Below are positions 36,045 through 60,576 of a stretch of 64,000 bases of DNA, piece by piece. The position numbers and the translations under genes are program-made. Positions within the stretch are counted from its first letter, which is position 1, and every line of letters begins with the position of its first letter. The stretch comes from Squalus acanthias (taxonomy: Eukaryota). Where the stretch lies: NCBI GenBank assembly GCA_030390025.1, contig CM059431.1, forward strand, positions 110,362,001 through 110,426,000, written 5' to 3'. A model generated the notes under the pieces. It saw nothing but the letters and a program-made list of their open reading frames with translations, did not search any database and was not told where the DNA came from.

Positions 36045-36503
36045 AAAGAAAAGAAAGACTTACATTTATATAGCGCCTTTCACGACCACCAGATGTCTCA
36101 AAGCGCTTTACAGCCAATGAAGTACTTTTTTGGAGTGTAGTCATTGTTGGAAATACAGCAGCCAACTTGCACACAGCAAGCTCCCACAAACAGCAATGTG
36201 ATAATGACCAGCTAATCTGTTTTTGTTATGTTGATTGAGGGATAAATATTGCCCAGGACACCAGGGATAACTCCCCTATTCTTCTTTGAAATAGTGCCAT
36301 GGGATCTTTTACATCCACCTGAGAGGGCAGTCGGGGCCTCAGTTTAAAGTCTCATCTGAAAGACGGCACCTCCGACAGTGCAGCTCTCCCTCAGCACTGC
36401 ACTGGAGTGTCAGCCTAGCTTTATGTGCTGCAAGTCCCTGGAGTGGGTCTTGAACCCACAACCTTCTGACTCAGAGACGAGAGTGCTACCTACTGAGCCA
36501 CAG
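36045..36503 (-). mobile_element. Full-length DeuSINE (SacSINE1-like), reverse strand
   Basis: Reverse complement of 27466-27922. Confidence 0.8.
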
Positions 36504-43313: not shown

Positions 43314-43665
43314 GGCCCCGGTATTTACAGAGAGGCGGGGAGGGTGCGAGGGAGGCCGAAAACAGCCGAAGAACCTTTAGGCCAGGTCACAGAGGTCCTG
43401 CCGAACTTAACGGCAGGATTTTATTGTCATTATTTGGATCCGTTTCCCACCCAGCCGCCGATCAAATTGACAGCCTGGCCGACGGCCTGGGGGGGATCAA
43501 CCAGCAGCAGGCGGCCACAGCCGGGGACGGTCCCCGACAATCGGGAGGAGAGAAGGTCGGCCATCATAGCGGGGGTAAGGGGGAAGAAGGGGGAGAAGGT
43601 TGGCGATAGGGATTAGGGGAGCGAGAGGCAGCGATTGGCAAGGGTGTAGGCCGAAGGCTTCCTTG
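43314..43665. mobile_element. Left half of a GC-rich MITE split by the provirus
   Basis: GGCCCCGGTATTTAC terminus; the sequence resumes at 56490 after the CTTG TSD. Confidence 0.5.
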
Positions 43666-45336
43666 TGTAAGGGTTTTGACCCGTGTGGCTCTGTGCTCAG
43701 CCTGGGTGCTAGTGCGAGGTTAGGCCTTGTTGCCTGTTCTGGTCTCCAGCCAGTCTGGGAGCACTAGACACCTGTGAGTGGTTCGACCCACTCGCCCTTA
43801 CGGTTCTGACACTGGACTTAGATGCGAGAGCAATAATGGAGAGAAAACTCAGGTAGACCCGGTTGAATGGTACGAAATGGAAAATCTTTATTGCATATTA
43901 TTCAAGATTACGAAATACATGTCATAAGCACAGATTAATGACAGTACAATCTTACACGCAGTTATGTAACTAATTTCAGGGAAACGAGGAACGAACGACA
44001 CATCGTAAATGGGGGCACACATTACAGTTATCCTTAAAACTTAAACCCTCCCCTATCAATACCTGCTCTAAACTAGATTTGTAGGATCGAGACTCATGCT
44101 CACCACTCGTGATAACTCGGAGAATTCCGAAAACTCTGCTCGGATGTTTTTACCGCAGCACCTGATCACCCACGTGTTGATCAGGGGTCTCTGTACCCCA
44201 CTTGTTTACTCGTTTCTGCTCCGGCTAGCAGGCTGGACTGTCTGCTGTCATGAAGATCTGTGTTGTTCTCGGAGTTCCGACACTACTCAAAAAAAAAAAG
44301 TCTTCCTGTGCCCTCGCCCTGATGCGATAAAACTCGAAGAATAGTCTTCCGATGCCAGTTCTGTAAAGCTCAAAAGATAGTCTTCCTGGGCAAGGAAATT
44401 GTCTATTTGACCTACAGGCGCGGTCGGGGCTTACTGACCGTGGCGAAACGTATGGTCGTCTTCTTCTCTTCTCATCTCATCTCATCTCATCTCGGGCCTT
44501 CGGTTCCAACACCGTTTACCGACTTCTCGGGATGGTGTGCCCATTTCAAGGCTTCACAGCCCAGTTCCACACAGATCTTCGCGGCAAGCCACGAGGCTGA
44601 TTCTGGCGGATCAGAAAGTTCAACAGTCTTTCAGCAAGTCAAACAGCAAGAGCTGCAAGAGGCAGAGGCACGATGCAAGCGGCAAGAGGCAGGAGAATAA
44701 GAGAAAGATGGACGGTTGTAGTTTACAGTTATAGTGCTGAAACTCTTCTTTTCCCGCCCAACCTTAATGTCTTTTCTTTTGTTAGGGTTTTGGCGCTCAA
44801 ATTTCTTGTATAGGGTGATCTCCGTTTTAATGGGTTTCGGGGATACTCGTAACTGTCTGAGTACCTGTTAATATTTTTCCCATTGTGTAACCGGTCAGTA
44901 TTCTCCCTGGAGGGGTTTTGGGGCTTCCAAATGTTTTCTGTAACTACCCGCAAACGGCTCTCTCATCGTAGAGTCGTGGGGATTTTGCATATTAATGTCT
45001 TTGGATGGGTTCTCGATCGCTTGGTACAATAGCCCTTATTCGCACCTGGGAGACCGATTTCAGTATTTATGTGTATACTGCAAACCCATAATGTCTCGTG
45101 TATTATCTCAAATGTGCTGAGTCTTGATCGATCTCGCACAAATGTTTATTGGAACGCCATCTTGTCTGCTTATCGAAAAGTCTAGAATGTTCTGCCACGA
45201 GGCGTGGCGGCCATTTTACAGGCTGCTTGTGTCCACTTTGAAAACCTGACAGCATTCTGCTGAAATAAAGCTGTTTGAACGAAACTATGTGTTTTCTCCT
45301 TATTTATAAAATCGCGATTATATTGCGAATTCTACA
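43666..45336 (-). repeat. 3' LTR (1671 bp)
   Basis: Direct repeat of 54819-56489; TG...CA ends; AATAAA on the minus strand at 43887-43892. Confidence 0.97.
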
Positions 45337-45347
45337 GTCCCTCCTGT
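45337..45347 (-). promoter_or_regulatory. Polypurine tract
   Basis: ACAGGAGGGAC immediately before the 3' LTR on the minus strand. Confidence 0.7.
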
Positions 45348-45783
45348 TGATGCGAATAACTCCGCTTATCGTATCAAAAATATTGTGGTGAACAATATTA
45401 TCTCAATTTCTCCAGATCCAGAAAAATAATCCCCATAACTTAAACTATCTAGGGTCTTTGCGTCGTCCTTATTTCCCAGGAAAATTACATTCTTATAACA
45501 CCGCAGGCATTATTTGCCTTTAAACTTACACCACTTGTTTTCCTTCCAGGCATAACCAGGCCGATGCCTCTCGTATCACCTGTATATTCACATTTTTTTT
45601 TGGGAAAAGAAAAACAAAACAAAACCAAACAATCATATTCAACAAAAACACCATCACCAAAATAATCAAAACCAACTCTTAAACATGTCGAGTTCCAAAC
45701 GTAATTACAGTTTCTGAAAAATCACGATCGATTACAACACTTCCGAGGCGCACGTGGCAAACGGGAATGACGCCATTTTCTGA

Positions 45784-48135
45784 TTACACGGTGCTTTCAT
45801 CGTGCACGCGCACGTTACGTTCTCGCCACTCTCCCGTGTTTTCGTTCTTGGTGAGGCGTTTGCCTCTCTTACAATGTACGACCAATAAGTATACCACAAT
45901 AAACACTTGGCATACAACTAAAATGTGGGAGGCTATTCTAATCCAGGAAGGCACTTCAATGTTGGTGAACAGATTCCACCACGGTGGAATTACTATGTCC
46001 AGAATGTCTGTCCCTATTTCGACAGTTTTCTGCTCTAGTGTGTAAAAATGTTTTTGTGACACCGCGACGGCTTTTAAAAGCTTGGTGAGGTGTTCAGGGA
46101 GAGGGGGAATGAGGTATCCGAAATGCGCGACGAATCGCTGCAGGTCGGTGAAGTTCTCTTTTACGGTGAGATGAACCGTGGATGGTTCAGGGATTGGGAC
46201 AATTCGCTGTTGTGCTACTTGAACTTCCGCCCTGGGTTTGAAACAGAAACTGCTGTCACTCACCGGACACCGGCTACGGTTTCCATGCTGGTAGTGTTGC
46301 GCTGCAGTGGTAACACAATATGTTCCACCCCCGATGTATGCTACCTGCGGAGGCACATGATCTTGTGCCATTGCCTCCATGGTGCAATTCATGGACTTGG
46401 CACCAGCCGTTCTGAACCCGCACTGTGGTGTTAAAAAGGCATTCAAGTGCTGGGGACACAGTATTATGTGTGCTCCCCTGCCACGACAACCAGAGAGATC
46501 TGTACCTGTCATCGTTTGCTCCCAGCGGATGACGTAAGGTGGAACCGCTGCATAGCGAATGTGGGCTCCCCCCTGAATGACACCAATGTTCTCTACCCGA
46601 TACACCGGGGCGGGCTTTGCTGTGTCGCCCAAAACCGGCATACGTAACACTATACCCATAATGGTATGATTTGACCGTCCGCAGTCCACGGGGACTGGGT
46701 ATGCTTCTGAAGCTAGCCTGAGCTGGCACGGGCTTAATGCGTTCTGAAAAGGGTGGAGCGCCCGCAGGTGTTTGTTACTTATCCAGGACGGGACCAAACC
46801 TTGTTTTAAATCCTCCAAATTACTGCGGCCCTCGCCCAGTAACCACGCCCCGTAAAGCACGCACACCTCATTCTGCGCAGCTTGATCGGATGCATTCCGA
46901 TCTTCCCTAATCAGGGCATTTACCGTTCTCGCGTGTTTCTCTAGTTCAGCTATTATTTCTTTTAAATGTAGAGTCATGGCTTGGTCCTCGTGTAACCCAG
47001 ACCCAACCACCTTATTTTCATCTGTGAGAATGTCCTTTAATTGCGTTTTTAAGCCATTAATCTGGGTCTGCAGCTCCACGCTGTCTAGAGCGTTGACCAC
47101 AGATGTACCTGTGTTGAAAGCAGTGAACGCGTCGTTCACAACACCCCTTCTTTGTCTCCCCACCTGATCCAAAACTTCCTGTGGTGCGGTGTACAAACTT
47201 GTTTTATCAATTTCCGCGAAATCGAATTCGTAAAATTGTCTGAACATCTTGGTCAACAGGACCTGATATAACTGCTCCGTCTTTTTGGGGCACCACTCTG
47301 GTAACCGCACCTCGGTGAGATTTAAAATCACCGAGGCCACCGCGTAATGTACCCCCTGAAATAGTATCTGGTCTGTGGGGACCAGTACCAAACCATTCCC
47401 GGGTCCCTTACTGGTTTTAGGGCACCCTTCTTCCTTAGCTAGAACCACCGGAATCGTGGGCGGGGCTTTGCGTGGGCGCGTAATGAGTTCAGTGGCATTT
47501 ACCGGGATCGGGGAGAATGGGGCTCCGCACTCCCTGGTGCTCGCATCCCACCTCATCCCCTGTCCGTTATCCTGCCATTGATTAATGAAAAATATGGAGA
47601 TGCCTTTGGGGCAAACGTACTTTGACCCCCACATACATACATAAATTCCCTCATCCGGTTCCCACCATTTGTCCCAACAGACTCTCACTTGTCCGTTTGT
47701 CCCCGTAATTGTCCGATGGGTATTATTACCCAGTCGTTCCCACTTGACCGAAGAGTTCCTCATGTTTTTGCTCAGCTTTCGTAGCCACCACCATCGGCTC
47801 AATGGGACATTCCCACTACAAGTCAAACAAATCCGTTTGCCGACGGTGACGCTGATCCTGGGTGCGATGATCCTTACTTTGGGGCACAGTAAAGAAGTCT
47901 CTTGGTAGGCAAACCCCGATGTGCTGGAATACTCCGTTGAGTTCGTTCCCAGCCATCCTGGCCACCTTCCCTTGTGGAAATAGGTGGTGGTCTCCTCAGC
48001 CTCCCGTCTTCCGGTCCCATCCACCGCGATGGGGGCCGTGTCCCCGGAGCATCCAAACACCACGACATCCTTGGTGCGGCCTCGATAGGCCAATCCACAT
48101 CCGATTGCCGCGAGCAATACTAGAATTCGTTCCAT
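45784..48135 (-). CDS. env: Envelope glycoprotein, class I fusion (F-like), 783 aa
   Basis: Signal peptide MERILVLLAAIGCGLA; N-glycosylation sequons; furin site RQRR (aa 327-330) followed by a fusion-peptide-like segment and heptad repeat; Cys-rich region; C-terminal TM ILVVCQVFIVVYLLVVHC; short basic tail. Confidence 0.9.
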   Translation of the reverse strand: MERILVLLAAIGCGLAYRGRTKDVVVFGCSGDTAPIAVDGTGRREAEETTTYFHKGRWPGWLGTNSTEYSSTSGFAYQETSLLCPKVRIIAPRISVTVGKRICLTCSGNVPLSRWWWLRKLSKNMRNSSVKWERLGNNTHRTITGTNGQVRVCWDKWWEPDEGIYVCMWGSKYVCPKGISIFFINQWQDNGQGMRWDASTRECGAPFSPIPVNATELITRPRKAPPTIPVVLAKEEGCPKTSKGPGNGLVLVPTDQILFQGVHYAVASVILNLTEVRLPEWCPKKTEQLYQVLLTKMFRQFYEFDFAEIDKTSLYTAPQEVLDQVGRQRRGVVNDAFTAFNTGTSVVNALDSVELQTQINGLKTQLKDILTDENKVVGSGLHEDQAMTLHLKEIIAELEKHARTVNALIREDRNASDQAAQNEVCVLYGAWLLGEGRSNLEDLKQGLVPSWISNKHLRALHPFQNALSPCQLRLASEAYPVPVDCGRSNHTIMGIVLRMPVLGDTAKPAPVYRVENIGVIQGGAHIRYAAVPPYVIRWEQTMTGTDLSGCRGRGAHIILCPQHLNAFLTPQCGFRTAGAKSMNCTMEAMAQDHVPPQVAYIGGGTYCVTTAAQHYQHGNRSRCPVSDSSFCFKPRAEVQVAQQRIVPIPEPSTVHLTVKENFTDLQRFVAHFGYLIPPLPEHLTKLLKAVAVSQKHFYTLEQKTVEIGTDILDIVIPPWWNLFTNIEVPSWIRIASHILVVCQVFIVVYLLVVHCKRGKRLTKNENTGEWRERNVRVHDESTV

Positions 48136-48148
48136 CCTTCCTTGGTTC

Positions 48149-48170
48149 CTGTGATCAGATAGAATGAGGT
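48149..48170 (-). promoter_or_regulatory. Candidate env splice acceptor
   Basis: ACCTCATTCTATCTGATCACAG|G with 13 nt before the env ATG. Confidence 0.55.
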
Positions 48171-48254
48171 AGCCAGCCTCGCAAGAGTCTCTGATTTTGT
48201 GAAGGGTGAGCGGGTCCCCTGACCTCGCCTCACGTAAGAAGACATGTGCGCTGG

Positions 48255-48450
48255 ATAAACTTTAACTAATCCTATCTCTAAAACTCCCATCATTTTACAT
48301 CCTTAAACAAAATTAAACTACCGACTTAAACCGATTTAAAACTATAACCTTATAACCTTATCTAAAACTATAAACTTATTCTTAACCTTAAACTATAAAC
48401 TTATTCTTAACCTTGAACTATAAACTTAGAAACTTATCCTAAACTTATTA
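48255..48450. repeat. AT-rich imperfect tandem repeats in the pol-env spacer
   Basis: Recurring AACTATAAACTTATTCTTAACCTT units (~25 bp). Confidence 0.75.
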
Positions 48451-48484
48451 CTGTACAGCGCCGCCCATTCCCAGGGCGGCCCAT

Positions 48485-51400
48485 TTAAATTCTGAAAAGG
48501 CTGCCACGAGCCTTTCCCGACGGTGGGAGGGCATTGACCCCTCCCTTTGATCTGCCGCAGCCTGTTGCTGCTGCGCTGGGACTGGGCTCTCCCTGGGCTG
48601 CCTTAACCTTGAGCCTACGCCTTGGGATACTCTGGGGACTTGACCATACCTTCCTGGGCTGGGGTATCCGACCTGACCTACGGAGAGTTACCGGGGGCAG
48701 GAACTCCAGGACCGACGGACCGGGTTCCGAGACTTCCACCGTGGCGACCTGTGGTCCCGCCACAGTCGCTGGCTCCGCCTCCCCTGGCTCCGCCTCCCCT
48801 GGCTCCGCCTCCCTGAACTCGGGATCTGCAGCTTGTGGCACTGCCCTACTCGGCCCAGTAGGCGGCCCTTCACTCGCAGTCCCTACCTCCCTCGAGGGCA
48901 GGACGTTCAAGGCGGGCGGCTCGGGCTCTGAGGCTTCCTTCGCCACGCCCTGTGGTCCCATCACAGCGGCTGGCTCCGCCTCCCCTGGCTCCTCCCCCCT
49001 GCGTTCGGGACCTGCAGCTTCGGCTTCCACCCTGTGTGGATCTCTATCTGCAGCCCCTGTCCCCCCTATACCTGAATCGGGGGCGACCCTTTCGTCCTCC
49101 GATTCCAGCTCTTCCTCGTCACTATCTTCACTATCCTCACTTTCACTATCTTCGTCGAGCTCCTTGAACTCACCCTCATCTGACTCCCAACCCCACAAAA
49201 ATGTCTCATAATTTTCCAGGATGTCCCCTTCCCTGATGCAAGCTGCTTTGCCTGCCTGTGTGCCCTGTGGCCCTACCTGGGGCTGCGAGTCCCCACTCGC
49301 AGGTTTTGCCCCTGTGGTTGGCCCTTGTGTACCTGGCTTGTACAGTTTGCACTGGTTTACGTGGAACCACTTAGTGCGCCGAGGTACCTTTACGGCGTAT
49401 ACCATGGGACTCGCCTTATCTACAATGTTGTAGGGTCCCATATACAGTGGTTCCAGACTCCCTACTCTGGCGTAGTTTCTGACCATGACCTGGTCTCCTA
49501 CTTCCCACTCCCGCGTTTTGCGGGGTTCCAGCAACAGGCGATTGCCCTGATGCTGCCTTCCCATGTTCCCAGCCGCCTGCTCATAAACCTGTTTCAGGCG
49601 CTCCAAGAGGGTCTGGACGAACTTGTCCCTGCTTATCTCTTGGAGCTGACCCTCAGTGAGCACCGGCGCTAGCACATGGGTGGGGGTTCGCATGATCCTC
49701 CTAGTCATCACCTCGTGCGGGGAATACCCCGTACTTTTCGACTGACTGGCCCGGACCCCCATGAGGACAAAAGGCAGAACCTCCGCCCATTTTTGGGGCG
49801 AGTTCATAGTCTCTTTCCTCAATTTCTCCTTCAGGGTCCGGTTCATGCGTTCAACAATCCCGGATGACTGGGGATTGTGCGCTACGTGCCATTTCCCTTC
49901 AATGCCCAAAAGCATGAGGGTGTTCTGCATCACCTGGCCGGTGAAATGACTCCCTTGGTCTGACTCCACAAAACGGGGGAGTCCCCACCGTGAGAACACT
50001 TCCCGGACCAAGATTTTTGCAGTACCCAGTGCCGTAGCTGTTCTACAGGGGAAGGCTTCCACCCATTTGGAAAACACATCCACCAAGACGAGGCAGTATT
50101 TATAGCCTCCCTGGGTGGTGGGCAGGGGCCCTATATAGTCGATCTGTATCGACTGCCATGGTCCCTCTACCCTCCTGACGTGCCCCATGGGCACTTTCCT
50201 TTTCTGGGGGTCTGGGTTGTTTGCAGCACACACGAGACAGCTTGCACAGAACTCGCGGACCTGTTCCCTGAGCCCCGGCCACCATCCCGCTTGCTCTACC
50301 CGTTGCCAGGTAACCTCGGGCCCGGGGTGCCCTGCCCCTGGTCCCTCGTGAGCCAACTGGAGGAATTCCCTCCTGTGCTGCTGCGGCACAACCCACTGCT
50401 CCTCGCGGAACAGCATGCCTTCCTTAACTGAGAGGGTTGCCGTACTGTACGGACCCTCTACCTGCTTCCCCTCAGCAAGGGTTTTGAGGACTGCTTTTAG
50501 GGCGGGATCCTGGTTCTGGACGGTCTTAAGGTCTCGGGGCAATGCTACCCTGGTGTTCCCGGGATTCCCGTCCCTGCCTTGGATCGCTGCCATGGGTCTG
50601 GGCCCATAGGGGTCCCAGAAAATGCCGTTGCGGGCACCTTCCCTGGCTAGCGCATCCGCCTGCTGGTTGCCTTCCCCAAGGGGCTCTGTGGAGGAGTGAG
50701 CCTTCACCTTATGGATGAAAATCTCCCCTTCCTCACCTACTGCTGCTAGGATCTTTTCCAGCAAGGGCTTCACCGTTAAAGGTCGCCCGTCCGCGGAGGT
50801 GTATCCACGGCGGGACCAAATGGCCAGGTATTCCGTACACGAATTGCATGTGAACATACTGTCCGAGCAAATCGTGTATGGGGTTGGGAAAATTTCTGGG
50901 TGGGTAACGACGTACACCACTGCAGATAGCTCAGCCTGCTGCGCGCTCATGGTGCTAGGGAGCTTGATCGCCAGGGCAAGGTTTGCCGCAGGGTCATAAA
51001 CTCCACACCCTGTGAGTCGTTCGCCAGCGGACACTGTGCTGGAACCATCAACATAAATCTCGCGCCCAGTGGGATGTATCCCGGCCCGCAAACCTATGTT
51101 GACTTCCCACACCCCTTCCACCGAACACTGGTGGGCTGTACCGGGGTATACCAAATTGGCCGCAAGCCTGGGCTCGCAAAGACCTTTAACTCTAAGATCC
51201 ATCTGGGAAAGAAGAAGGGTCCAGCGCGCAATACGCACGCTGCTTACGGTCCCATCTTTAATCCTCCCATCTAGAAGCATCTTAGTTGGTGTGTGATGGG
51301 TGAGGAGAGTGATGGGAGAGAGCCCTGTGAAGATCGCTGATCTTTTCACAGCCCAATGCGTGGCTAAAAGGCGCCTTTCGCAATTGGAGAAACTTCTCTC

Positions 51401-53008
51401 CACATCCGTTAACACCCTGGACGAATAGACAACCGGCCTCAGCTTGCCGTGGCGCTCTTGGAGCAGCACAGCGCTCAAGCTGTCTCCGCTGGCAGCTACC
51501 TCCAGGAAAAACTCCTTCCCCCCATCTATGGCCCCTAAAGCTGGCGCGGTCTGCAAATCCCTTTTTAACTTCTCGAAGGCTGCTTGGCAGCCCTCGTCCC
51601 AAGACCACTCCACTCCCTTATGGAGGAGTCGGAGCAGCGGCGCCGCTGTGGCCGCATAGTCTTCGATAAAATCCCTGCAGTAACCGGTCAGTCCCAAAAA
51701 GGACCTCACACCCCTTATGGTGTTGGGAATCGGTAACTCTTGCACCGACTCCCTCCTAGCCTTATCTATGGCTCTTTCCCCAGCGCGAATGGTCAGCCCC
51801 AGGAATTTTACTTCCTGCTGACCGATACGTGCTTTCTTAGGGTTCACTTTAAAACCCTTTCTCGCTAGCAGCTCCAATAATTCGGCCAGCAGTGGTCCAT
51901 GCTCCTCCCTTGAATCCGTAAATAGGAGCAAATCATCCACGTACTGCACTATCTGATTGGGCTGACTAAACTCCTTTAAACTTCCTGCCATACACTGATG
52001 GAAAATACTGGGGCTGTTGTGGAAACCCTGTGGCAGACAGTTCCATGTGTACTGTTGTCCTTTGAAAGTAAAGGCAAACTTGTACTGGTCCTCTCGCCGC
52101 AGCGGGATGGACCAAAAACCGTTCGAGATATCCAGCACCGTGAATGTGGTCGCGGACGCTGGGATACTCCCTATTAGGTCAGCGACTGCTGCTACCGTGG
52201 GCGCGCAGGCGGGAATGTTACTGTTAAGGACTCTGTAGTCCACCGTGGCCCTCCACGAATTATCCGGCTTCCTAACCGGCCATAATGGGGAGTTCACGTG
52301 TGTGGCTATCGGCCTCAACACGCCCTGCTGCACCAAGGAGGACATTGCTGTCTCCATATCGGGTTCTGCTTCTTTGGGGAAGTTATACTGCTTTTGGGGC
52401 CGGGTCATGGGGTCCCCATCTACGCTGACCTCAAACCCGGTAACCCTCCCACAATCGTGCTTGTGGGTTGCAAACGCGTGCATATTATCTGACACATACG
52501 TTTGCATGTCCGTTGGGACATCCGCGACCATAAGCCCGAGGTCGTAGCCTCCGGATGGCTTCATGGTACACAGGGCCCCTGTTTCTTCCTCCCCCGGAAT
52601 TACCACTACCTCGCCGTCTCCACCCTTAGCCCCCCAGAGACAGTGATTCCTGAGGTCCACGAGGATCCCGTGCCCTGATAGGAGATCGGACCCGAGGATA
52701 CCTCTCCCACCCCCCTCATGCCATTTCATCAGTATGCACTTCCACGTGATGTGGAGTGTTCCTAAACGAATGGATAGCGGAAGGGAGAACGCGCCAGCCT
52801 GTTCTTTTCCCGTGAACCCCGCTAATGTGAATGGGACCTTGGTAGATAGCGGTGAGTCAAAAGGGCTATCTGTATGAATCACGGTGCAAGAAGCTCCCGT
52901 GTCCAACAAATAACTACCCTTCTGTTGCTCTACCTCCATCTCCACCAGGGGTCGCTTCCACGCATCATAGCTGAGCGGACACAGGTAGACGGGCTGCGCG
53001 GGCTCTAG
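48485..53008 (-). CDS. pol: Pol polyprotein: protease, RT, degenerate RNase H/tether, RNase H, integrase, acidic tail
   Basis: LLDTGAS; VLDISNGFW, LPQGFHNSP, YVDD; EVAAS...YSSR; YVDGS...AEL...SDS...KAH...NQQAD; HHCC, DDE and GPY. The frame is open from the gag stop at 53009. Confidence 0.95.
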   Translation of the reverse strand, partial: LEPAQPVYLCPLSYDAWKRPLVEMEVEQQKGSYLLDTGASCTVIHTDSPFDSPLSTKVPFTLAGFTGKEQAGAFSLPLSIRLGTLHITWKCILMKWHEGGGRGILGSDLLSGHGILVDLRNHCLWGAKGGDGEVVVIPGEEETGALCTMKPSGGYDLGLMVADVPTDMQTYVSDNMHAFATHKHDCGRVTGFEVSVDGDPMTRPQKQYNFPKEAEPDMETAMSSLVQQGVLRPIATHVNSPLWPVRKPDNSWRATVDYRVLNSNIPACAPTVAAVADLIGSIPASATTFTVLDISNGFWSIPLRREDQYKFAFTFKGQQYTWNCLPQGFHNSPSIFHQCMAGSLKEFSQPNQIVQYVDDLLLFTDSREEHGPLLAELLELLARKGFKVNPKKARIGQQEVKFLGLTIRAGERAIDKARRESVQELPIPNTIRGVRSFLGLTGYCRDFIEDYAATAAPLLRLLHKGVEWSWDEGCQAAFEKLKRDLQTAPALGAIDGGKEFFLEVAASGDSLSAVLLQERHGKLRPVVYSSRVLTDVERSFSNCERRLLATHWAVKRSAIFTGLSPITLLTHHTPTKMLLDGRIKDGTVSSVRIARWTLLLSQMDLRVKGLCEPRLAANLVYPGTAHQCSVEGVWEVNIGLRAGIHPTGREIYVDGSSTVSAGERLTGCGVYDPAANLALAIKLPSTMSAQQAELSAVVYVVTHPEIFPTPYTICSDSMFTCNSCTEYLAIWSRRGYTSADGRPLTVKPLLEKILAAVGEEGEIFIHKVKAHSSTEPLGEGNQQADALAREGARNGIFWDPYGPRPMAAIQGRDGNPGNTRVALPRDLKTVQNQDPALKAVLKTLAEGKQVEGPYSTATLSVKEGMLFREEQWVVPQQHRREFLQLAHEGPGAGHPGPEVTWQRVEQAGWWPGLREQVREFCASCLVCAANNPDPQKRKVPMGHVRRVEGPWQSIQIDYIGPLPTTQGGYKYCLVLVDVFSKWVEAFPCRTATALGTAKILVREVFSRWGLPRFVESDQGSHFTGQVMQNTLMLLGIEGKWHVAHNPQSSGIVERMNRTLKEKLRKETMNSPQKWAEVLPFVLMGVRASQSKSTGYSPHEVMTRRIMRTPTHVLAPVLTEGQLQEISRDKFVQTLLERLKQVYEQAAGNMGRQHQGNRLLLEPRKTREWEVGDQVMVRNYARVGSLEPLYMGPYNIVDKASPMVYAVKVPRRTKWFHVNQCKLYKPGTQGPTTGAKPASGDSQPQVGPQGTQAGKAACIREGDILENYETFLWGWESDEGEFKELDEDSESEDSEDSDEEELESEDERVAPDSGIGGTGAADRDPHRVEAEAAGPERRGEEPGEAEPAAVMGPQGVAKEASEPEPPALNVLPSREVGTASEGPPTGPSRAVPQAADPEFREAEPGEAEPGEAEPATVAGPQVATVEVSEPGPSVLEFLPPVTLRRSGRIPQPRKVWSSPQSIPRRRLKVKAAQGEPSPSAAATGCGRSKGGVNALPPSGKARGSLFRI

Positions 53009-54814
53009 TCATTGGGTACTATTAGACGGGGCTGTGGCACCTGCGGGGCTGGTAGCAACCGCCACTTTTCCATGCGCACTCATGAGGTTACGCATGGCTC
53101 CCAACACTGTTTCGATCGCGTCGGGATGGATGGGTGTACTAGCTTCCCTATCAGAGACAGGCGCCTGGGCTCGGGCTGCGGGATTTTTATCCCTGGAATC
53201 CTTCCAAGGGTTCCTGCAGTTCTTGCGCCAGTGCCCTGTCTTCCCACACCCGTAACAAGCATTACTGGCCTGCGGGGCGCGGTTACCCTCCTGATGCCAC
53301 TCCTTTTGAGCCGGGGCTGCGGGTCGTGCCTCATGCACCTTTCCCTTAAGGGGACGTGCTCCCATACTTCTGGTATTACGGTACCCCACCGTGAGTCGAT
53401 TTAGGACCGACTCCTCTGTAGTGGTGGGGTCCGTGGGATCAAACCACGCTTTTGCCTGCTCCCTGACGGCTGGCAAACTGTTGGCTACTATACACCTGAG
53501 CCAATGAGTTAAACCGATGTCTGCCACATCGGCGCGCTCTGGCGCACCTGGGCAGCTACGCTGGTATACTGGCCACAGACTGGCGGCGAAAACCTTCGGG
53601 GGTTCTCCCTCCATCTGCACTGTCTGTCCCAGTCTAACAAACGGACCTTCATCGTCCGCTCCCAATACTTCTAGGACCTCATTTCTTAGTGCCCCATAGG
53701 TCTTAGTTCCCCTCTTGCTCTCGTCTGAGAGACACTGAAGGATCGAACTACCTAATGAGAATAACAGCATCTTTGCTGTTTCCCCATCGTCGCAGCCGTT
53801 AATGGCTGCGGTTTGCTCTATTTCCCTAAAATGTACGGAAGGGTCGTCTGACTCGGCCAGCTTCGGTACGTGACTGATCATAATCCTCAGCTGGTGTGAG
53901 CTGTGAGGCAACACAAGCTGGTTGAGGAGATCCCCTTGTTCCCCACCGTCTCTGTTCGGGCCCCTTTTGATACCCGTGACCGGACACAACGGTCCCGGTT
54001 CCACTTCTACCTCGGCGGGCTCTTTCGTTACTTCTACCACTTTCTCCCTTACCCAGGTTTCCGAATAGCTGGGTGGCGCGGAGGGCGTAGTGGCTAATAC
54101 TTCCTCTGCTTTGTTTGGTGGGGATTTCTGAAATTCCTCATCCACTAGCGGCTGGTGTGCTGACGGACTGATAAGGCACACCATGCCGTGCGCTTTGTTC
54201 ACGGCCCTTTTAAGGTGCTCTATCTCCTTTTGGCAGACGCTGTGATCGGCCCCCTGAAATTTATCCTCGAGGGCCATCTTATATGCCGCCCTAACCCCCG
54301 TTAAGCTCTCTTCCTGGGCTTTTATTTGGGCAGCTTGGCGGGCACATCGTTCCTTTAATCTGCCCTCACTTAACTTTGCCTCAGTGACCTGGTACTCGAG
54401 GTAACCTATTTTTGCTTTATGGTGGTTGGTGACTACCTGGCGTTCTTGATGCAACGCATTTAAAGTCGTGATGAGCTGCTGCCTCCCCGCGACCTTCTCG
54501 TCCATTTCCACCTCTAAACGCCTGATCCGAGCTGCTTGCGCTGTAATGACCTGGTCCGAAATTTGGACTTCTCTTTTATAGCACATCAGCCAGACCGCTT
54601 TCTCCACTGCCTTTTTATGTTCTTTGCTATCTGTCCACCTCTCGGCTGCCTCTAGTGGACACTTATCCACCAGCAGGTCACTTATCCATTTCTTAGTCAA
54701 ATTTACTTTTCCGAACACATAATCTGCTATTCTGTCTTCCATGACATTTCGCCCAATCATACCAAAGTCTAACACATTACCCTCTCGCTGCCAGTGTCCT
54801 GCCGCGGTCGCCAT
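53009..54814 (-). CDS. gag: Gag polyprotein, 601 aa
   Basis: Position after the 5' LTR; N-terminal coiled coil; PSAPPSY late domain; capsid-like region; CYGCGKTGHWRKNC CCHC zinc knuckle. Confidence 0.92.
   Translation of the reverse strand: MATAAGHWQREGNVLDFGMIGRNVMEDRIADYVFGKVNLTKKWISDLLVDKCPLEAAERWTDSKEHKKAVEKAVWLMCYKREVQISDQVITAQAARIRRLEVEMDEKVAGRQQLITTLNALHQERQVVTNHHKAKIGYLEYQVTEAKLSEGRLKERCARQAAQIKAQEESLTGVRAAYKMALEDKFQGADHSVCQKEIEHLKRAVNKAHGMVCLISPSAHQPLVDEEFQKSPPNKAEEVLATTPSAPPSYSETWVREKVVEVTKEPAEVEVEPGPLCPVTGIKRGPNRDGGEQGDLLNQLVLPHSSHQLRIMISHVPKLAESDDPSVHFREIEQTAAINGCDDGETAKMLLFSLGSSILQCLSDESKRGTKTYGALRNEVLEVLGADDEGPFVRLGQTVQMEGEPPKVFAASLWPVYQRSCPGAPERADVADIGLTHWLRCIVANSLPAVREQAKAWFDPTDPTTTEESVLNRLTVGYRNTRSMGARPLKGKVHEARPAAPAQKEWHQEGNRAPQASNACYGCGKTGHWRKNCRNPWKDSRDKNPAARAQAPVSDREASTPIHPDAIETVLGAMRNLMSAHGKVAVATSPAGATAPSNSTQ
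54796..54813 (-). promoter_or_regulatory. Primer binding site, tRNA-Ser-like (tentative)
   Basis: TGGCGACCGCGGCAGGAC, 5 nt after the 5' LTR; TGGCG....CGGCAGGA resembles the complement of vertebrate tRNA-Ser 3' ends, with mismatches. Confidence 0.65.
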
Positions 54815-54818
54815 TTTC

Positions 54819-56489
54819 TGTAAGGGTTTTGACCCGTGTGGCTCTGTGCTCAGCCTGGGTGCTAGTGCGAGGTTAGGCCTTGTTGCCTGTTCTGGTCTCC
54901 AGCCAGTCTGGGAGCACTAGACACCTGTGAGTGGTTCGACCCACTCGCCCTTACGGTTCTGACACTGGACTTAGATGCGAGAGCAATAATGGAGAGAAAA
55001 CTCAGGTAGACCCGGTTGAATGGTACGAAATGGAAAATCTTTATTGCATATTATTCAAGATTACGAAATACATGTCATAAGCACAGATTAATGACAGTAC
55101 AATCTTACACGCAGTTATGTAACTAATTTCAGGGAAACGAGGAACGAACGACACATCGTAAATGGGGGCACACATTACAGTTATCCTTAAAACTTAAACC
55201 CTCCCCTATCAATACCTGCTCTAAACTAGATTTGTAGGATCGAGACTCATGCTCACCACTCGTGATAACTCGGAGAATTCCGAAAACTCTGCTCGGATGT
55301 TTTTACCGCAGCACCTGATCACCCACATGTTGATCAGGGGTCTCTGTACCCCACTTGTTTACTCGTTTCTGCTCCGGCTAGCAGGCTGGACTGTCTGCTG
55401 TCATGAAGATCTGTGTTGTTCTCGGAGTTCCGACACTACTCAAAAAAAAAAAGTCTTCCTGTGCCCTCGCCCTGATGCGATAAAACTCGAAGAATAGTCT
55501 TCCGATGCCAGTTCTGTAAAGCTCAAAAGATAGTCTTCCTGGGCAAGGAAATTGTCTATTTGACCTACAGGCGCGGTCGGGGCTTACTGACCGTGGCGAA
55601 ACGTATGGTCGTCTTCTTCTCTTCTCATCTCATCTCATCTCATCTCGGGCCTTCGGTTCCAACACCGTTTACCGACTTCTCGGGATGGTGTGCCCATTTC
55701 AAGGCTTCACAGCCCAGTTCCACACAGATCTTCGCGGCAAGCCACGAGGCTGATTCTGGCGGATCAGAAAGTTCAACAGTCTTTCAGCAAGTCAAACAGC
55801 AAGAGCTGCAAGAGGCAGAGGCACGATGCAAGCGGCAAGAGGCAGGAGAATAAGAGAAAGATGGACGGTTGTAGTTTACAGTTATAGTGCTGAAACTCTT
55901 CTTTTCCCGCCCAACCTTAATGTCTTTTCTTTTGTTAGGGTTTTGGCGCTCAAATTTCTTGTATAGGGTGATCTCCGTTTTAATGGGTTTCGGGGATACT
56001 CGTAACTGTCTGAGTACCTGTTAATATTTTTCCCATTGTGTAACCGGTCAGTATTCTCCCTGGAGGGGTTTTGGGGCTTCCAAATGTTTTCTGTAACTAC
56101 CCGCAAACGGCTCTCTCATCGTAGAGTCGTGGGGATTTTGCATATTAATGTCTTTGGATGGGTTCTCGATCGCTTGGTACAATAGCCCTTATTCGCACCT
56201 GGGAGACCGATTTCAGTATTTATGTGTATACTGCAAACCCATAATGTCTCGTGTATTATCTCAAATGTGCTGAGTCTTGATCGATCTCGCACAAATGTTT
56301 ATTGGAACGCCATCTTGTCTGCTTATCGAAAAGTCTAGAATGTTCTGCCACGAGGCGTGGCGGCCATTTTACAGGCTGCTTGTGTCCACTTTGAAAACCT
56401 GACAGCATTCTGCTGAAATAAAGCTGTTTGAACGAAACTATGTGTTTTCTTCTTATTTATAAAATCGCGATTATATTGTGAATTCTACA
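54819..56489 (-). repeat. 5' LTR (1671 bp)
   Basis: Direct repeat of 43666-45336; only three substitutions noticed by eye. Confidence 0.97.
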
Positions 56490-57326: not shown

Positions 57327-57558
57327 AAGATTTGCATTTATATAGCGCCTTTCACAACCACCGGACGACCCAAAGCACTTTACAGCCAATGAAATACTTT
57401 TGAAGTGTAGTCACTGTTGTAATGCAGGAAACGCGGCAGCCAATTTGTGCACAGCAAGCTCCCACAAACAGCAATGTGATAATGACCAGATAACCTGTTT
57501 TAGTGATGTTGATTGAGGGATAAATATTGGCCCCAGGACACCGGGGAGAACTCCCCTG
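57327..57558 (-). mobile_element. DeuSINE 3' half, reverse strand
   Basis: Reverse complement of the SINE core and tail. Confidence 0.75.
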
Positions 57559-58551: not shown

Positions 58552-60576
58552 ATGGAGAGGCCCAGGGAACGAGCTCAGCACTTCAACGACCGGGCCTTGG
58601 TGGCTCTGGTTGGCGCAGTGGAGTGGCGAAGGGCCGTACTCTACCCACAGAGTGGCAGGAGGCCATTGCCCCGTGACTATAGAAGAGTGTGGAGGGAGGT
58701 GGCTCAGCACGTCTCCTCCAGGAGCCTGGTACCCAGGACCCACACCCAATGTCGGAAGAAGTTCAACGACCTCACTCGGGTGGTCAGGGTGAGTGGCTGC
58801 TTTTCAATACCTCTCCATCCCTCCATCTCAACTTCACTCTGTGCCCAGAGGGTTTAAAAACCCCAAATTCCCAACACTCATCCAAGACCAATGGCCATCT
58901 CATAAAACACACACGCACATTCCACACCTTGCATACATTAAGGGCTATTCAACTATGGGAGGCACATCAGGCAAGCACATGGCTGCATACATTAAGGGCT
59001 ATTCAACTATGGAAGGCACATCAGGCAAGCATATGGCTGCATACATTAAGGGCTATTCAACTATGGGAGGCACATCAGGCAAGCATATGGCTGCATACAT
59101 TAAGGGCTATTTAACAATGGGAGGCACATCAGGCAAGCATATGGCTGCATACATTAAGGGCTATTTAACAATGGGAGGCACATCAGGCAAGCATATGGCT
59201 GCATACATTAAGGGCTATTTAACAATGGGAGTCACATCAGGCAAGCACATGGCTGCACATTTATTCAGACGCCGTCCTTTTTCTTGCAGGCCAAGCTCTC
59301 TCACACCAGGCACCAGCAGCAACGCACGGGCGGAGGACCGGCTGAGCTGCAGACCCTCAGCGATTTGGAGACGCGCGTCCACAGGATCGTTGCCAGCCAG
59401 GTGATAGGTACCGTGGCCGCTGGAGAGATCGACCCCCTTGGGGACAGCAATGGTAAGTTCATCAGCTTTCTCTCCTCTCTCATTCCACTTGTCCCTCACA
59501 ACACCAGCCTTTTACACTTTCAATCCAACTTACTAAATCGCTCCAGTCCTTGCTCTCTTACTGCCCCCCTGTCCTGACGCTAAAGCCACTCTTGTACCTC
59601 CCTGCTTTCAGATAGTGAACCACCAGCTGAGCAGCCTGTCCCTCAGCCAACCAGTGGGAGCGACGCCGCAGGCGAGGAGGAAGAGGAAGCCGGAGCCTCA
59701 GCGCCTGCGTCTCCCGAGGGAGCCCATGTCCACAATGGGACCACGCCTTCCCTGGAGGGGAGCAGGGGGGAAGGGTCTGATGAGGACGAAGCTCCGGGAC
59801 CCAGCGGGCTGCAGCAACGCCATGGGAGTAGGGAAGCTCGGGGGCCATCTCCCCGGAGGGCGAGTAGGCAAGCGAGTCCTGCTGCACTGGACACAGAGGA
59901 GGAGCGCGTCATCGCGGAAATGAATAGCCAGGCCTTGAACATGCATACTCAGCTCATGGGTGCAATGGCAAGGGTGCCCGAAAGCATTGATGGAATAGCA
60001 AGGAGTGTGGAGCACTCCGCTGCAGCACAGGCCAACGCAACGCAATGGCTTAGTGCTGCAAATCAGTCACTGGCTGCTGCCATCCAATCTCAGACTGCTC
60101 TCATGCAGTCTCAGATTGAGGTCACGCATGCACTGAATGCTACCATCGTCGCTGGTTCGGCCACATTGCCCCGGGGCTGTCACGGTGCTGCAGCAGGCCA
60201 GCAATCTGTGCTCGAGCAGATTGCTCCGAATGCTGAGGTACTGCCTCGTGGGAGTGCCAGTGTGTCGGTCAAGCAGGGAGGTGCTGTCCTCTCTCAGGAT
60301 GATAGCACTCCTGCTGCCACCACTGTCACTTCCCCATTACACTTGCCACCGCCTGCAACACAGCCAGCCCAGACAGCTGCCGCCCATGCAGAGTTGGTGC
60401 AGTCTGCAGCTGGTCGAGGCCGTCCTTCAAGGGCATCTGTAGTATCAGCATCTGACATTCAGCAGCCTTCCACCAGCCTTGCTGCAGCCACTGGGGCCCC
60501 ATTACGGAGGAGCAGTAGGGTGGGAAGGGGGGAAGTGCGCAAGGGATGGAGATCACCCTCGAAGGGCAAACAGTAG
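58552..60576 (+). CDS. Harbinger Myb/SANT-like DNA-binding protein; 3 exons (58552-58788, 59290-59452, 59612-60576), ~454 aa
   Basis: MERPRERAQHF...VWREVAQHVSS...RTHTQCRKKFNDL; donors GTGAGT and GTAAGT; acceptors TTGCAG and TTTCAG; exons join in frame (1365 nt). Confidence 0.8.
58931..59256 (+). repeat. 54-bp minisatellite x6 in intron 1 of the Myb/SANT gene
   Basis: GCATACATTAAGGGCTATT(C/T)AAC(T/A)ATGGGAGGCACATCAGGCAAGCA(C/T)ATGGCT tandem units. Confidence 0.95.

Follow-up and report, generated by a model that had tools for sequence, protein, structure and literature searches.

We describe the envelope protein (Env) of an endogenous retrovirus (ERV) from Squalus acanthias. The element lies in a stretch of 64,000 nucleotides (nt), here called the window (assembly GCA_030390025.1, contig CM059431.1, positions 110,362,001 to 110,426,000 of the forward strand), whose own numbering is used throughout. 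It occupies 43663..56489 on the minus strand and, as judged by BLASTN of one end against the other, is a complete provirus of ~12.8 kb in which gag, pol and env stand between two long terminal repeats (LTRs). The env frame is open and encodes 783 amino acids (aa) at 45784..48135 (stop codon, 45784-45786); it is the single envelope gene of the provirus, which has no separate attachment protein. An earlier reading of the window's letters by a model (the original prediction) had noticed an immunoglobulin (Ig)-like domain near the N-terminus of Env, ahead of a fusion module like that of viral F proteins, and had proposed that it could be a captured host domain serving receptor binding or immune evasion. 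Our analysis suggests that an Ig-type domain is very probably present, and that it may be an old, exchangeable module which acts as the receptor-binding head of an F-like Env.

Organization of the envelope protein

All features of Env are encoded on the minus strand. The protein begins with a putative signal peptide (aa 1-16, 48088..48135), read from a hydrophobic helix at residues 2-15 rather than from a predictor. It is followed by a conserved segment (aa 17-83, 47887..48087; YGCSG..AP, GRWPGWLGSNST) in which no fold was recognized, by the proposed whole Ig-like domain (aa 84-187, 47575..47886), which runs from C84 to a putative G strand (GISIFFINQW), and by a linker (aa 188-232, 47440..47574) with a sequon at N213, a proline-rich stretch and low model confidence. 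The core of the Ig-like domain, aa 88-170, is encoded at 47626-47874, and its translation reads RIIAPRISVTVGKRICLTCSGNVPLSRWWWLRK...GQVRVCWDKWWEPDEGIYVCMWG. Three sequons, N65, N127 and N137, lie in or beside the domain.

Past the linker comes an F2-like segment of ~98 aa (aa 233-330, 47146..47439), which extends from a conserved CP..GP.NGL motif to a furin-type site, RQRR (aa 327-330, nt 47146-47157), and is modelled with a predicted local distance difference test score (pLDDT) of ~90 over aa 240-310. The remainder is an F1-like membrane-anchored fusion subunit (aa 331-783, 45787..47145) that opens with a fusion-peptide-like stretch, GVVNDAFTAFNTGTSVV, directly past RQRR. In the full-length model this part has long helices at 334-444 and 680-711 and beta-rich domains at 477-645, and a hydropathy scan places the transmembrane anchor at aa 734-756 (45868..45936), within a modelled helix spanning 730-779. 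Distant Envs become alignable at the CP..GP.NGL motif. Because they align only from aa ~221-234 onward, we read aa 233-330 as F2-like and aa 17-232 as an extension without counterpart in F proteins. This extension of ~215 aa between the signal peptide and the F2-like segment houses the Ig-like domain, which is the recognizable fold inside it.

Evidence for an immunoglobulin-type fold

Translation confirmed both the peptide and the Cys/Trp/DxGxYxC signature that had been reported for 47626-47874, or Env aa 88-170. Alignment to domain 2 of JAM-A identifies C106 as the B-strand Cys, and the C-strand Trp, W117, lies 11 residues past it, inside the 10-15 expected of the superfamily, and is invariant in 5/5 homologues. 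The D-x-G-x-Y-x-C motif of the E-F turn and F strand is present as D161-E-G163-I-Y165-V-C167, with the G, Y and C invariant and the D changed to E in one of the five. C106 and C167 are spaced 61 residues apart, within the range of ~55-75 found in the immunoglobulin superfamily (IgSF). Env contains the pattern C-x(8,16)-W-x(35,65)-D-x-G-x-Y-x-C a single time, and it arose in 28 of 100,000 composition-preserving shuffles of the whole protein. Across the five homologues (53-71% identity to the window), the residues C103, C106, W117, C153, G163, Y165, C167 and C175 are all invariant, and among 30 genomic copies none of eight nonsynonymous variants within aa 88-170 falls on a signature residue.

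Profile searches gave matches of the same kind. With the N-terminal 252 aa as query, the Pfam family Ig_3 matched aa 88-167 (E 0.078, 13.9 bits), and the corresponding stretch matched it in three of the four close homologues scanned (P0053, 0.0027; P0011, 0.0085; P0006, 0.58), the scores of the close homologues being 11-19 bits; the fourth, P0009, had no Ig_3 among its 25 listed families. The best match of whole Env among PDB sequences was Ig domain 2 of JAM-A (1f97, E 0.21, aa 80-170), and antibody light chains made up 3 of the 12 PDB sequence rows listed, with E near 1.

AlphaFold2, run on aa 1-250 with an alignment of 12 sequences, predicts seven strands in the stretch from aa 91 to 169; a two-sheet Ig sandwich has 7-9. 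When this model was compared to the PDB with Foldseek, 50/50 listed matches were Ig domains, nearly all of V type (best E 4.9e-3, TMt 0.5-0.6). VIA-align, an aligner independent of Foldseek, was run against 48,161 chains and again listed Ig domains in 50/50 cases, titin and NCAM2 I-set domains among them; CD8alpha (5eb9, 2.5 A over 88 residues) and a skate immunoglobulin new antigen receptor (IgNAR) V domain (8ht3) both scored Z 7.1, values of Z ~7 being, by the tool's own guidance, frequent in models that have no clear counterpart. Language-model neighbours with a Pfam family belonged to the Ig clan in 10/10 cases (top score 0.90). Against the viral predicted structures of BFVD, Foldseek returned no match at E<=0.001, and a few Ig-family proteins of herpesviruses and poxviruses stood among unrelated rows.

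The case that would have refuted the original prediction, no beta-sandwich in the model and no Ig profile match, did not arise: sub-threshold Pfam and PDB matches, Foldseek, VIA-align and language-model neighbours all point to an Ig-type domain, although the profiles stay under their curated thresholds and pLDDT is low. We infer the fold from several weak lines that agree, none of them strong alone. Going by a low-confidence model and sub-threshold profiles, Env aa ~84-187 very probably form a divergent Ig-type beta-sandwich. The Cys spacing and strand count best fit an I-set or short V-like domain, and the domain is most likely an I/V-like member of the IgSF of the Ig_3 type.

The F-like fusion module

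A full-length model of Env, built from 37 sequences, reached pLDDT ~90 over aa 240-310 and 400-650. Foldseek matched it to the F protein of human parainfluenza virus 3 (hPIV3; 1ztm, E 8.6e-11), followed by the post-fusion F proteins of Langya virus, respiratory syncytial virus (RSV) and Newcastle disease virus, with 236 matches at E<=0.001. At the sequence level, an Env family profile searched against PDB sequences matched foamy virus gp130 best (8rm1, E 0.017) and also paramyxovirus F0 (7ki6, E 0.2). The Pfam family PF00523 gave no match at E<=10 for the window Env and none at E<=1 for six relatives. As modelled, the C-terminal ~550 aa of Env can confidently be assigned to the class I fusion fold of paramyxovirus and pneumovirus F. 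The arrangement originally predicted, an Ig module followed in the same polypeptide by an F-like fusion module, is supported, with the F-like fold coming from the model and the family profile.

Distribution of the module among related envelopes

Named public relatives of Env come from Rhinoraja, Pristiophorus, Rhincodon, Chiloscyllium, Mustelus and Heterodontus. When 1.84 billion representatives were scanned exhaustively with HMMER, 50 hits were returned, eight of which reach the N-terminal part; all eight are ERV Env fragments or chimeric gene models with zinc fingers or pol pieces. A word-based search with aa 1-230 found 5 proteins, again all ERV Env fragments or chimeric models. A host Ig protein was absent from the 50 HMMER hits, and the window's own genome was not searched with the Ig segment alone. 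Env fragments of skate, sawshark and whale shark carry the Ig domain and its flanks at 50-76% identity. Since the domain with its flanks is common to the Envs of these animals, it predates the ERV family of the window. Some shark and skate gene models annotated as host genes, namely P0004 ('Niban 1-like'), P0009 ('zinc finger protein ZFP2-like') and P0017, contain fused Env fragments and are probably gene-prediction chimeras over ERV insertions.

Weak Ig signals extend to more distant Envs. UniRef names the bamboo shark Env P0014 'Ig-like domain-containing protein', and this Env matches antibody heavy-chain variable (VH) domains at E 0.054. For the N-terminus of the frog Env P0021, 50/50 listed PDB matches were Fab heavy chains (best 0.0049), and its language-model neighbours belonged to the Ig clan (0.84). 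The N-terminus of P0035 matched V-set at 0.045 and has no canonical Cys pair, and in a second frog Env, P0049, the Ig signal was judged by eye only. The Ig-type module of this Env family thus most likely occurs in sharks, skates and frogs.

Other relatives have no Ig signal. P0040, a complete Env of 584 aa that includes the anchor, and P0048, from the coelacanth Latimeria chalumnae, lack an N-terminal module: their signal peptides lead directly into the F2-like CP..GP..GL motif, which makes them F-like retroviral Envs of minimal form. From residue 154 of the Ig-bearing P0035 onward, P0040 shares 38% identity with it. The closest non-Ig relatives, P0013 (Mustelus asterias), P0024 (Pristiophorus japonicus) and P0032 (Chiloscyllium plagiosum), have instead a Cys-rich N-terminus.

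A maximum likelihood tree of the F-like part (10 rows, midpoint-rooted, with two long branches) has two groups. The first is (P0014 Ig, (window Ig, (P0013 Cys-rich, P0016))), and the second is (P0049 Ig, (P0048 none, (P0021 Ig, P0069), (P0035 Ig, P0040 none))). The non-Ig states are nested among Ig-bearing branches in this tree, on which parsimony requires 3 changes from an Ig-bearing ancestor and 5 with independent gains. The weak Ig signals in distant shark and frog Envs, together with the nesting of the non-Ig states, make the module look old in the Env family. Its absence from two relatives and its replacement by a Cys-rich N-terminus in three sharks indicate that it is also swappable.

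Selection on genomic copies

A protein search of the window's genome yielded 57 full-length env matches, which were scored as the best of 12,915 first-look candidates. They are 98-99% identical, and 49/57 have no stop codon; the provirus family is very large and very young. The ratio of nonsynonymous to synonymous polymorphism (pN/pS) was calculated from 11 of 12 copies chosen by protein score, one being dropped for a match one residue short, and was 0.07 for the Ig domain, 0.07 for whole env and 0.05 for the F1-like ectodomain. Because choice by protein score favors copies with few amino-acid changes, a second count used 30 copies picked for their DNA similarity across aa 1-278, none of which was dropped and some of whose loci are in both sets. 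In these, pN/pS was 0.15 for the Ig domain and 0.12 for aa 1-278, and 2/30 had a stop. Purifying selection on the Ig domain is as strong as on the fusion core. The low pN/pS means that the copies diverged largely while selection maintained a functional Env together with its Ig domain, and a ratio of ~0.1 is better explained by reinfection than by intragenomic copying.

At aa 131 (47743-47745, minus strand), the window copy has Lys, where 29/29 other DNA-ascertained copies and the Rhinoraja homologue P0003 have Glu. Contigs of 4 runs, whose kinds were guessed, contained the env family at 90-100% likeness, with no leader-to-env joint and nothing readable as transcription.

Layout of the provirus and its surroundings

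The LTRs are a direct repeat of 1674 nt with 99.76% identity (43663-45336 and 54816-56489, from BLASTN of the two ends). Reading of the ends, which are TG...CA and bear a 4-bp CAAG duplication on both sides, probably narrows the 5' LTR (54816..56489) to 54819-56489 and the 3' LTR (43663..45336) to 43666-45336. On the minus strand the 5' LTR is followed by a TGG-starting stretch like a primer-binding site, and a purine-rich tract lies just upstream of the 3' LTR.

The gag frame, open from stop to stop, occupies 53009..54916 on the minus strand and has a weak CCHC zinc-knuckle match (zf-CCHC, E 0.0037, under the Pfam cut-off). It ends in a single TGA (53009-53011, minus strand) and shares its frame with pol, so a Gag-Pol product would need stop-codon readthrough. 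The pol gene (48485..53008, minus strand) encodes protease (PR), reverse transcriptase (RT), a degenerate RNase H (the tether), RNase H, integrase and a low-complexity C-terminal tail; Pfam matches were RVT_1 (1.2e-35), RT_RNaseH_2 (1.9e-21) and RNase_H (3.5e-20), along with RT_RNaseH, Integrase_H2C2 and rve. Its best PDB matches, Ty3 (8.3e-71), a gammaretroviral RT (3.8e-70) and foamy virus PR-RT (1e-63), are about equally similar, and the integrase is closest in the PDB to prototype foamy virus (PFV) integrase (4e-33).

The tail of pol extends ~250 aa past the SH3-like domain of integrase (48485-49250, minus strand) and is acidic and rich in Pro, Glu and Ala, with internal repeats (EAEPGEAEP...) and direct repeats at 48692-48798 and 48893-48999. 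Outside the provirus, a tandem array with a 54-nt unit lies at 58876-59307, reported as six overlapping 162-nt copies, and a 106-nt direct repeat with 90% identity flanks the provirus region (36149-36254 and 57427-57532, 21 kb apart); the latter is probably another dispersed repeat.

Discussion

The results are best read as an old, exchangeable Ig module that forms the receptor-binding head of an F-like Env, a reading to which, taken as a whole, we give a probability of roughly 0.55. With a single envelope gene and no attachment protein encoded by the provirus, binding to the cell has to be done by Env. The N-terminal extension is the only part missing from minimal F proteins and from the module-less relatives, which is why the Ig module is read as the head; if the Ig fold is correct, a receptor-binding role for it is probable. 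In the mechanism we propose, furin-type cleavage at RQRR330 would release a surface subunit (SU) of aa 17-330, whose N-terminal Ig module would engage the receptor, and this engagement would presumably free the F-like subunit to refold and fuse the membranes. The suggestion that attachment and fusion are combined in one protein holds in that both modules stand in one polypeptide, with attachment the part that we infer. A more specific form of it, in which a true IgSF attachment module was acquired in the distant past from a cell-adhesion or immune receptor of vertebrates and binds a host IgSF counterpart in the style of homophilic adhesion, is only tentative. If this more specific form is true, Envs with no module, with an Ig module and with a Cys-rich module stand side by side as a record of an F-like fusogen becoming self-sufficient for entry.

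Several results weigh against this reading, at the level of the fold, the role or the age of the module. As to the fold, every Ig profile match is under its curated threshold (13.9 bits against a cut-off of 30 for Ig_3), and an N-terminal family profile searched against PDB sequences found only a single-chain variable fragment (E 0.29). The model of aa 1-250 has a mean pLDDT of 44.8, with 55-66 in the domain and no confident G strand, and the full-length model is mostly below pLDDT 50 over the Ig region and draws aa 112-119 as a helix. Such sub-threshold matches and low confidence, together with the unexceptional VIA Z, favor the alternative that a Cys/Trp-rich segment of SU imitates the signature by chance and that the predictor fell back on a common beta-sandwich. 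We consider this quite unlikely, as independent methods converge on one fold and one register, the motif is rare among shuffled sequences, and the signature residues are invariant in the Env family. As to the role, the conserved aa 17-83 or aa 188-232 could carry receptor binding instead, and comparison across species shows the Ig domain to vary no more than the segments beside it, in contrast to the receptor-binding regions of many retroviruses. The main rival to receptor binding is accordingly a structural or shielding role, in which the module would cap the prefusion F-like trimer or hide it under glycans, and attachment would fall to aa 17-83, to aa 188-232 or to the F-like body, as in pneumovirus F. 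The lack of variability would suit such a role, as would the sequons at N65, N127 and N137, and the module-less P0040 and P0048 indicate that an F-like body alone can suffice as Env. We nevertheless regard it as improbable: purifying selection equal to that on the fusion core suits a specific interaction better than a passive shield, and close relatives (the P0013 group) have swapped the module for another. Receptor-binding regions of retroviruses are commonly swapped between relatives.

As to age, homology of the window Ig domain to the N-terminal domains of the distant Envs could not be demonstrated: hhalign gave a profile of the close-family Ig domain a probability of <=1.4% against P0014, P0021, P0049 and P0035, and BLASTP gave only a 22-aa high-scoring segment pair with P0014 (E 0.016) and no match with P0021. 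To call the module ancestral therefore rests on its position, its fold type and parsimony on the 10-row, midpoint-rooted tree with its two long branches. An alignment of the four distant N-termini by MAFFT visibly misaligned P0014 and P0035 and was set aside. If Ig modules were instead gained several times by repeated host capture, with that of the window lineage an acquisition of its own, one could account for the lack of significant sequence similarity among the domains of the window group, P0014, P0021, P0049 and P0035, for their differing lengths and Cys patterns (P0035 having no canonical pair), and for the sister position of module-less P0040 to Ig-bearing P0035. This history is doubtful in view of the 3 changes against 5 gains on the tree, the lack of a detected host donor for any of the modules, and two local resemblances to P0014, one in the A'-B strands at the equivalent position (45% over 22 aa) and one in a W..W....G.I.C stretch aligned by hhalign (E 0.037). 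Recent capture of a host Ig gene by this retrovirus, for immune evasion or mimicry, was close to what had originally been suggested, and it has in its favor that the signature is canonical and that Ig domains in viruses are usually host-derived. It is hardly tenable, given the 50-76% identity of the domain and its flanks in skate, sawshark and whale shark Env fragments and the absence of a host protein from the 50 hits of an exhaustive search; moreover, the domain is joined covalently to the rest of SU, ahead of the furin site, rather than being secreted on its own. With no donor found, recent capture is not supported. A traceable host capture and immune evasion are the parts of the original prediction that we do not retain: no host Ig protein was found in the 50 HMMER hits or the 5 word-based hits (aa 1-230), the weak Ig signals of the bamboo shark and two frog Envs and the nesting of non-Ig states make the module look old rather than newly acquired, and nothing in our results supported immune evasion. 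Acquisition of the module was quite probably ancient rather than recent, and its ultimate origin was presumably a host.

Comparison with known systems

F-like Env in retrovirus-like elements is already known from lokiretroviruses and foamy viruses. For lokiretroviruses (lokiortervirus), two papers (Wang & Han, Mol Biol Evol 2021, PMC7947760; mBio 2022, PMC9040795) describe an Env with a signal peptide, furin-type site, fusion peptide, coiled coil and anchor that resembles paramyxovirus and pneumovirus F. The window element is like them in its F-like Env and its dual RNase H, a degenerate tether plus a second RNase H, and its Env has relatives in frogs and coelacanth, which belong to host classes named there. 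It differs in that the Loki-Str Env is given there as matching PF00523 at 2.2e-7, whereas the window Env has no such match at E<=10. The main text of both papers contains none of the terms 'immunoglobulin', 'Ig-like', 'receptor' and 'N-terminal', and cartilaginous fishes are not among its host classes. Neither 'immunoglobulin' nor 'Ig-like' occurs in a 2026 review of ERV structure or in a preprint on F-type Env in invertebrate elements, and a full-text search of the literature, covering main texts, found no link of lokiretrovirus-type Env to an Ig-like domain. The window Env is most likely related to lokiretrovirus-type and foamy virus Env.

The foamy virus Env paper (Sci Adv 2024, PMC11468914) treats the F fold as a minimal scaffold that takes receptor-binding modules N-terminally, as in coronavirus spike, or between subunits, as in foamy Env. 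The foamy receptor-binding domain (RBD), which is of non-Ig type, spans aa 217-543 and interrupts the N-terminal subunit. By that account, foamy gp130 (8rm1) resembles the window Env as we read it, since an F-like scaffold carries a receptor-binding module of its own and no distinct attachment protein exists, and coronavirus spike resembles it in placing such a module N-terminal to the fusion machinery in one polypeptide. The modules of spike are different from the Ig-type module of the window and far larger. Compared to foamy Env, the module of the window Env occupies the far N-terminal end and precedes the entire F2-like segment, and a plain predicted signal peptide takes the place of a foamy-type leader peptide; gag has a weak CCHC match and is in frame with pol across one TGA. 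Foamy viruses have an Env leader peptide and an internal RBD, express pol separately, and have a Gag without a Cys-His motif.

The F proteins of paramyxoviruses and pneumoviruses (hPIV3 1ztm, RSV 3rki, Langya 8tve) have the fold that Env shows over aa ~233-730 (Foldseek E values from 8.6e-11 to 1e-6), and the window Env likewise has its F2-like segment of ~98 aa before the furin site. They differ in having no N-terminal Ig module, and their sequence similarity to the window Env is marginal (E 0.2). In F proteins, F2 follows directly past the signal peptide, and a separate HN, H or G protein serves attachment. The gammaretroviral SU offers a parallel of another kind, an N-terminal beta-sandwich domain that binds the receptor in a retroviral SU: the RBD of Friend murine leukaemia virus has an Ig-like beta-sandwich core, is not known to carry the canonical signature of IgSF sequences, and is attached to a transmembrane subunit of another type.

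With cellular IgSF domains (JAM-A D2 1f97, CD8alpha 5eb9, IgNAR V 8ht3, titin and NCAM I-set), the window domain shares the Cys-Trp-Cys and DxGxYxC signature and the predicted strand order. It differs in the extra conserved cysteines C84, C103, C153 and C175, in a run of tryptophans and in its fusion to a viral fusogen, and identity in structural alignments is 12-22%. Assignment to a particular IgSF family is not possible. Closer to hand, A0A401SHR0 (P0014, from Chiloscyllium punctatum) is a 739-aa Env homologue whose F-like part is 28% identical to that of the window; its annotation is that of a hypothetical host protein and not of an Env, and no sequence similarity between its Ig domain and that of the window could be detected. 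An Ig-like label on one shark homologue is therefore already public, given by an automatic pipeline and without recognition of the protein as Env.

Paramyxovirus F needs a separate attachment protein, and foamy viruses and coronaviruses added receptor-binding modules to the same scaffold. The Env family of the window would represent a third way, in which a small Ig-type domain of canonical kind stands at the very N-terminus, with relatives that have no module or a different one, so that the modular evolution of class I fusogens becomes directly comparable inside one Env family. It extends F-type retroviral Envs to cartilaginous fishes, which are not among the hosts in the main text of PMC7947760 and PMC9040795, and it may offer a compact, expressible domain with which to seek the first receptor of a lokiretrovirus-type virus.

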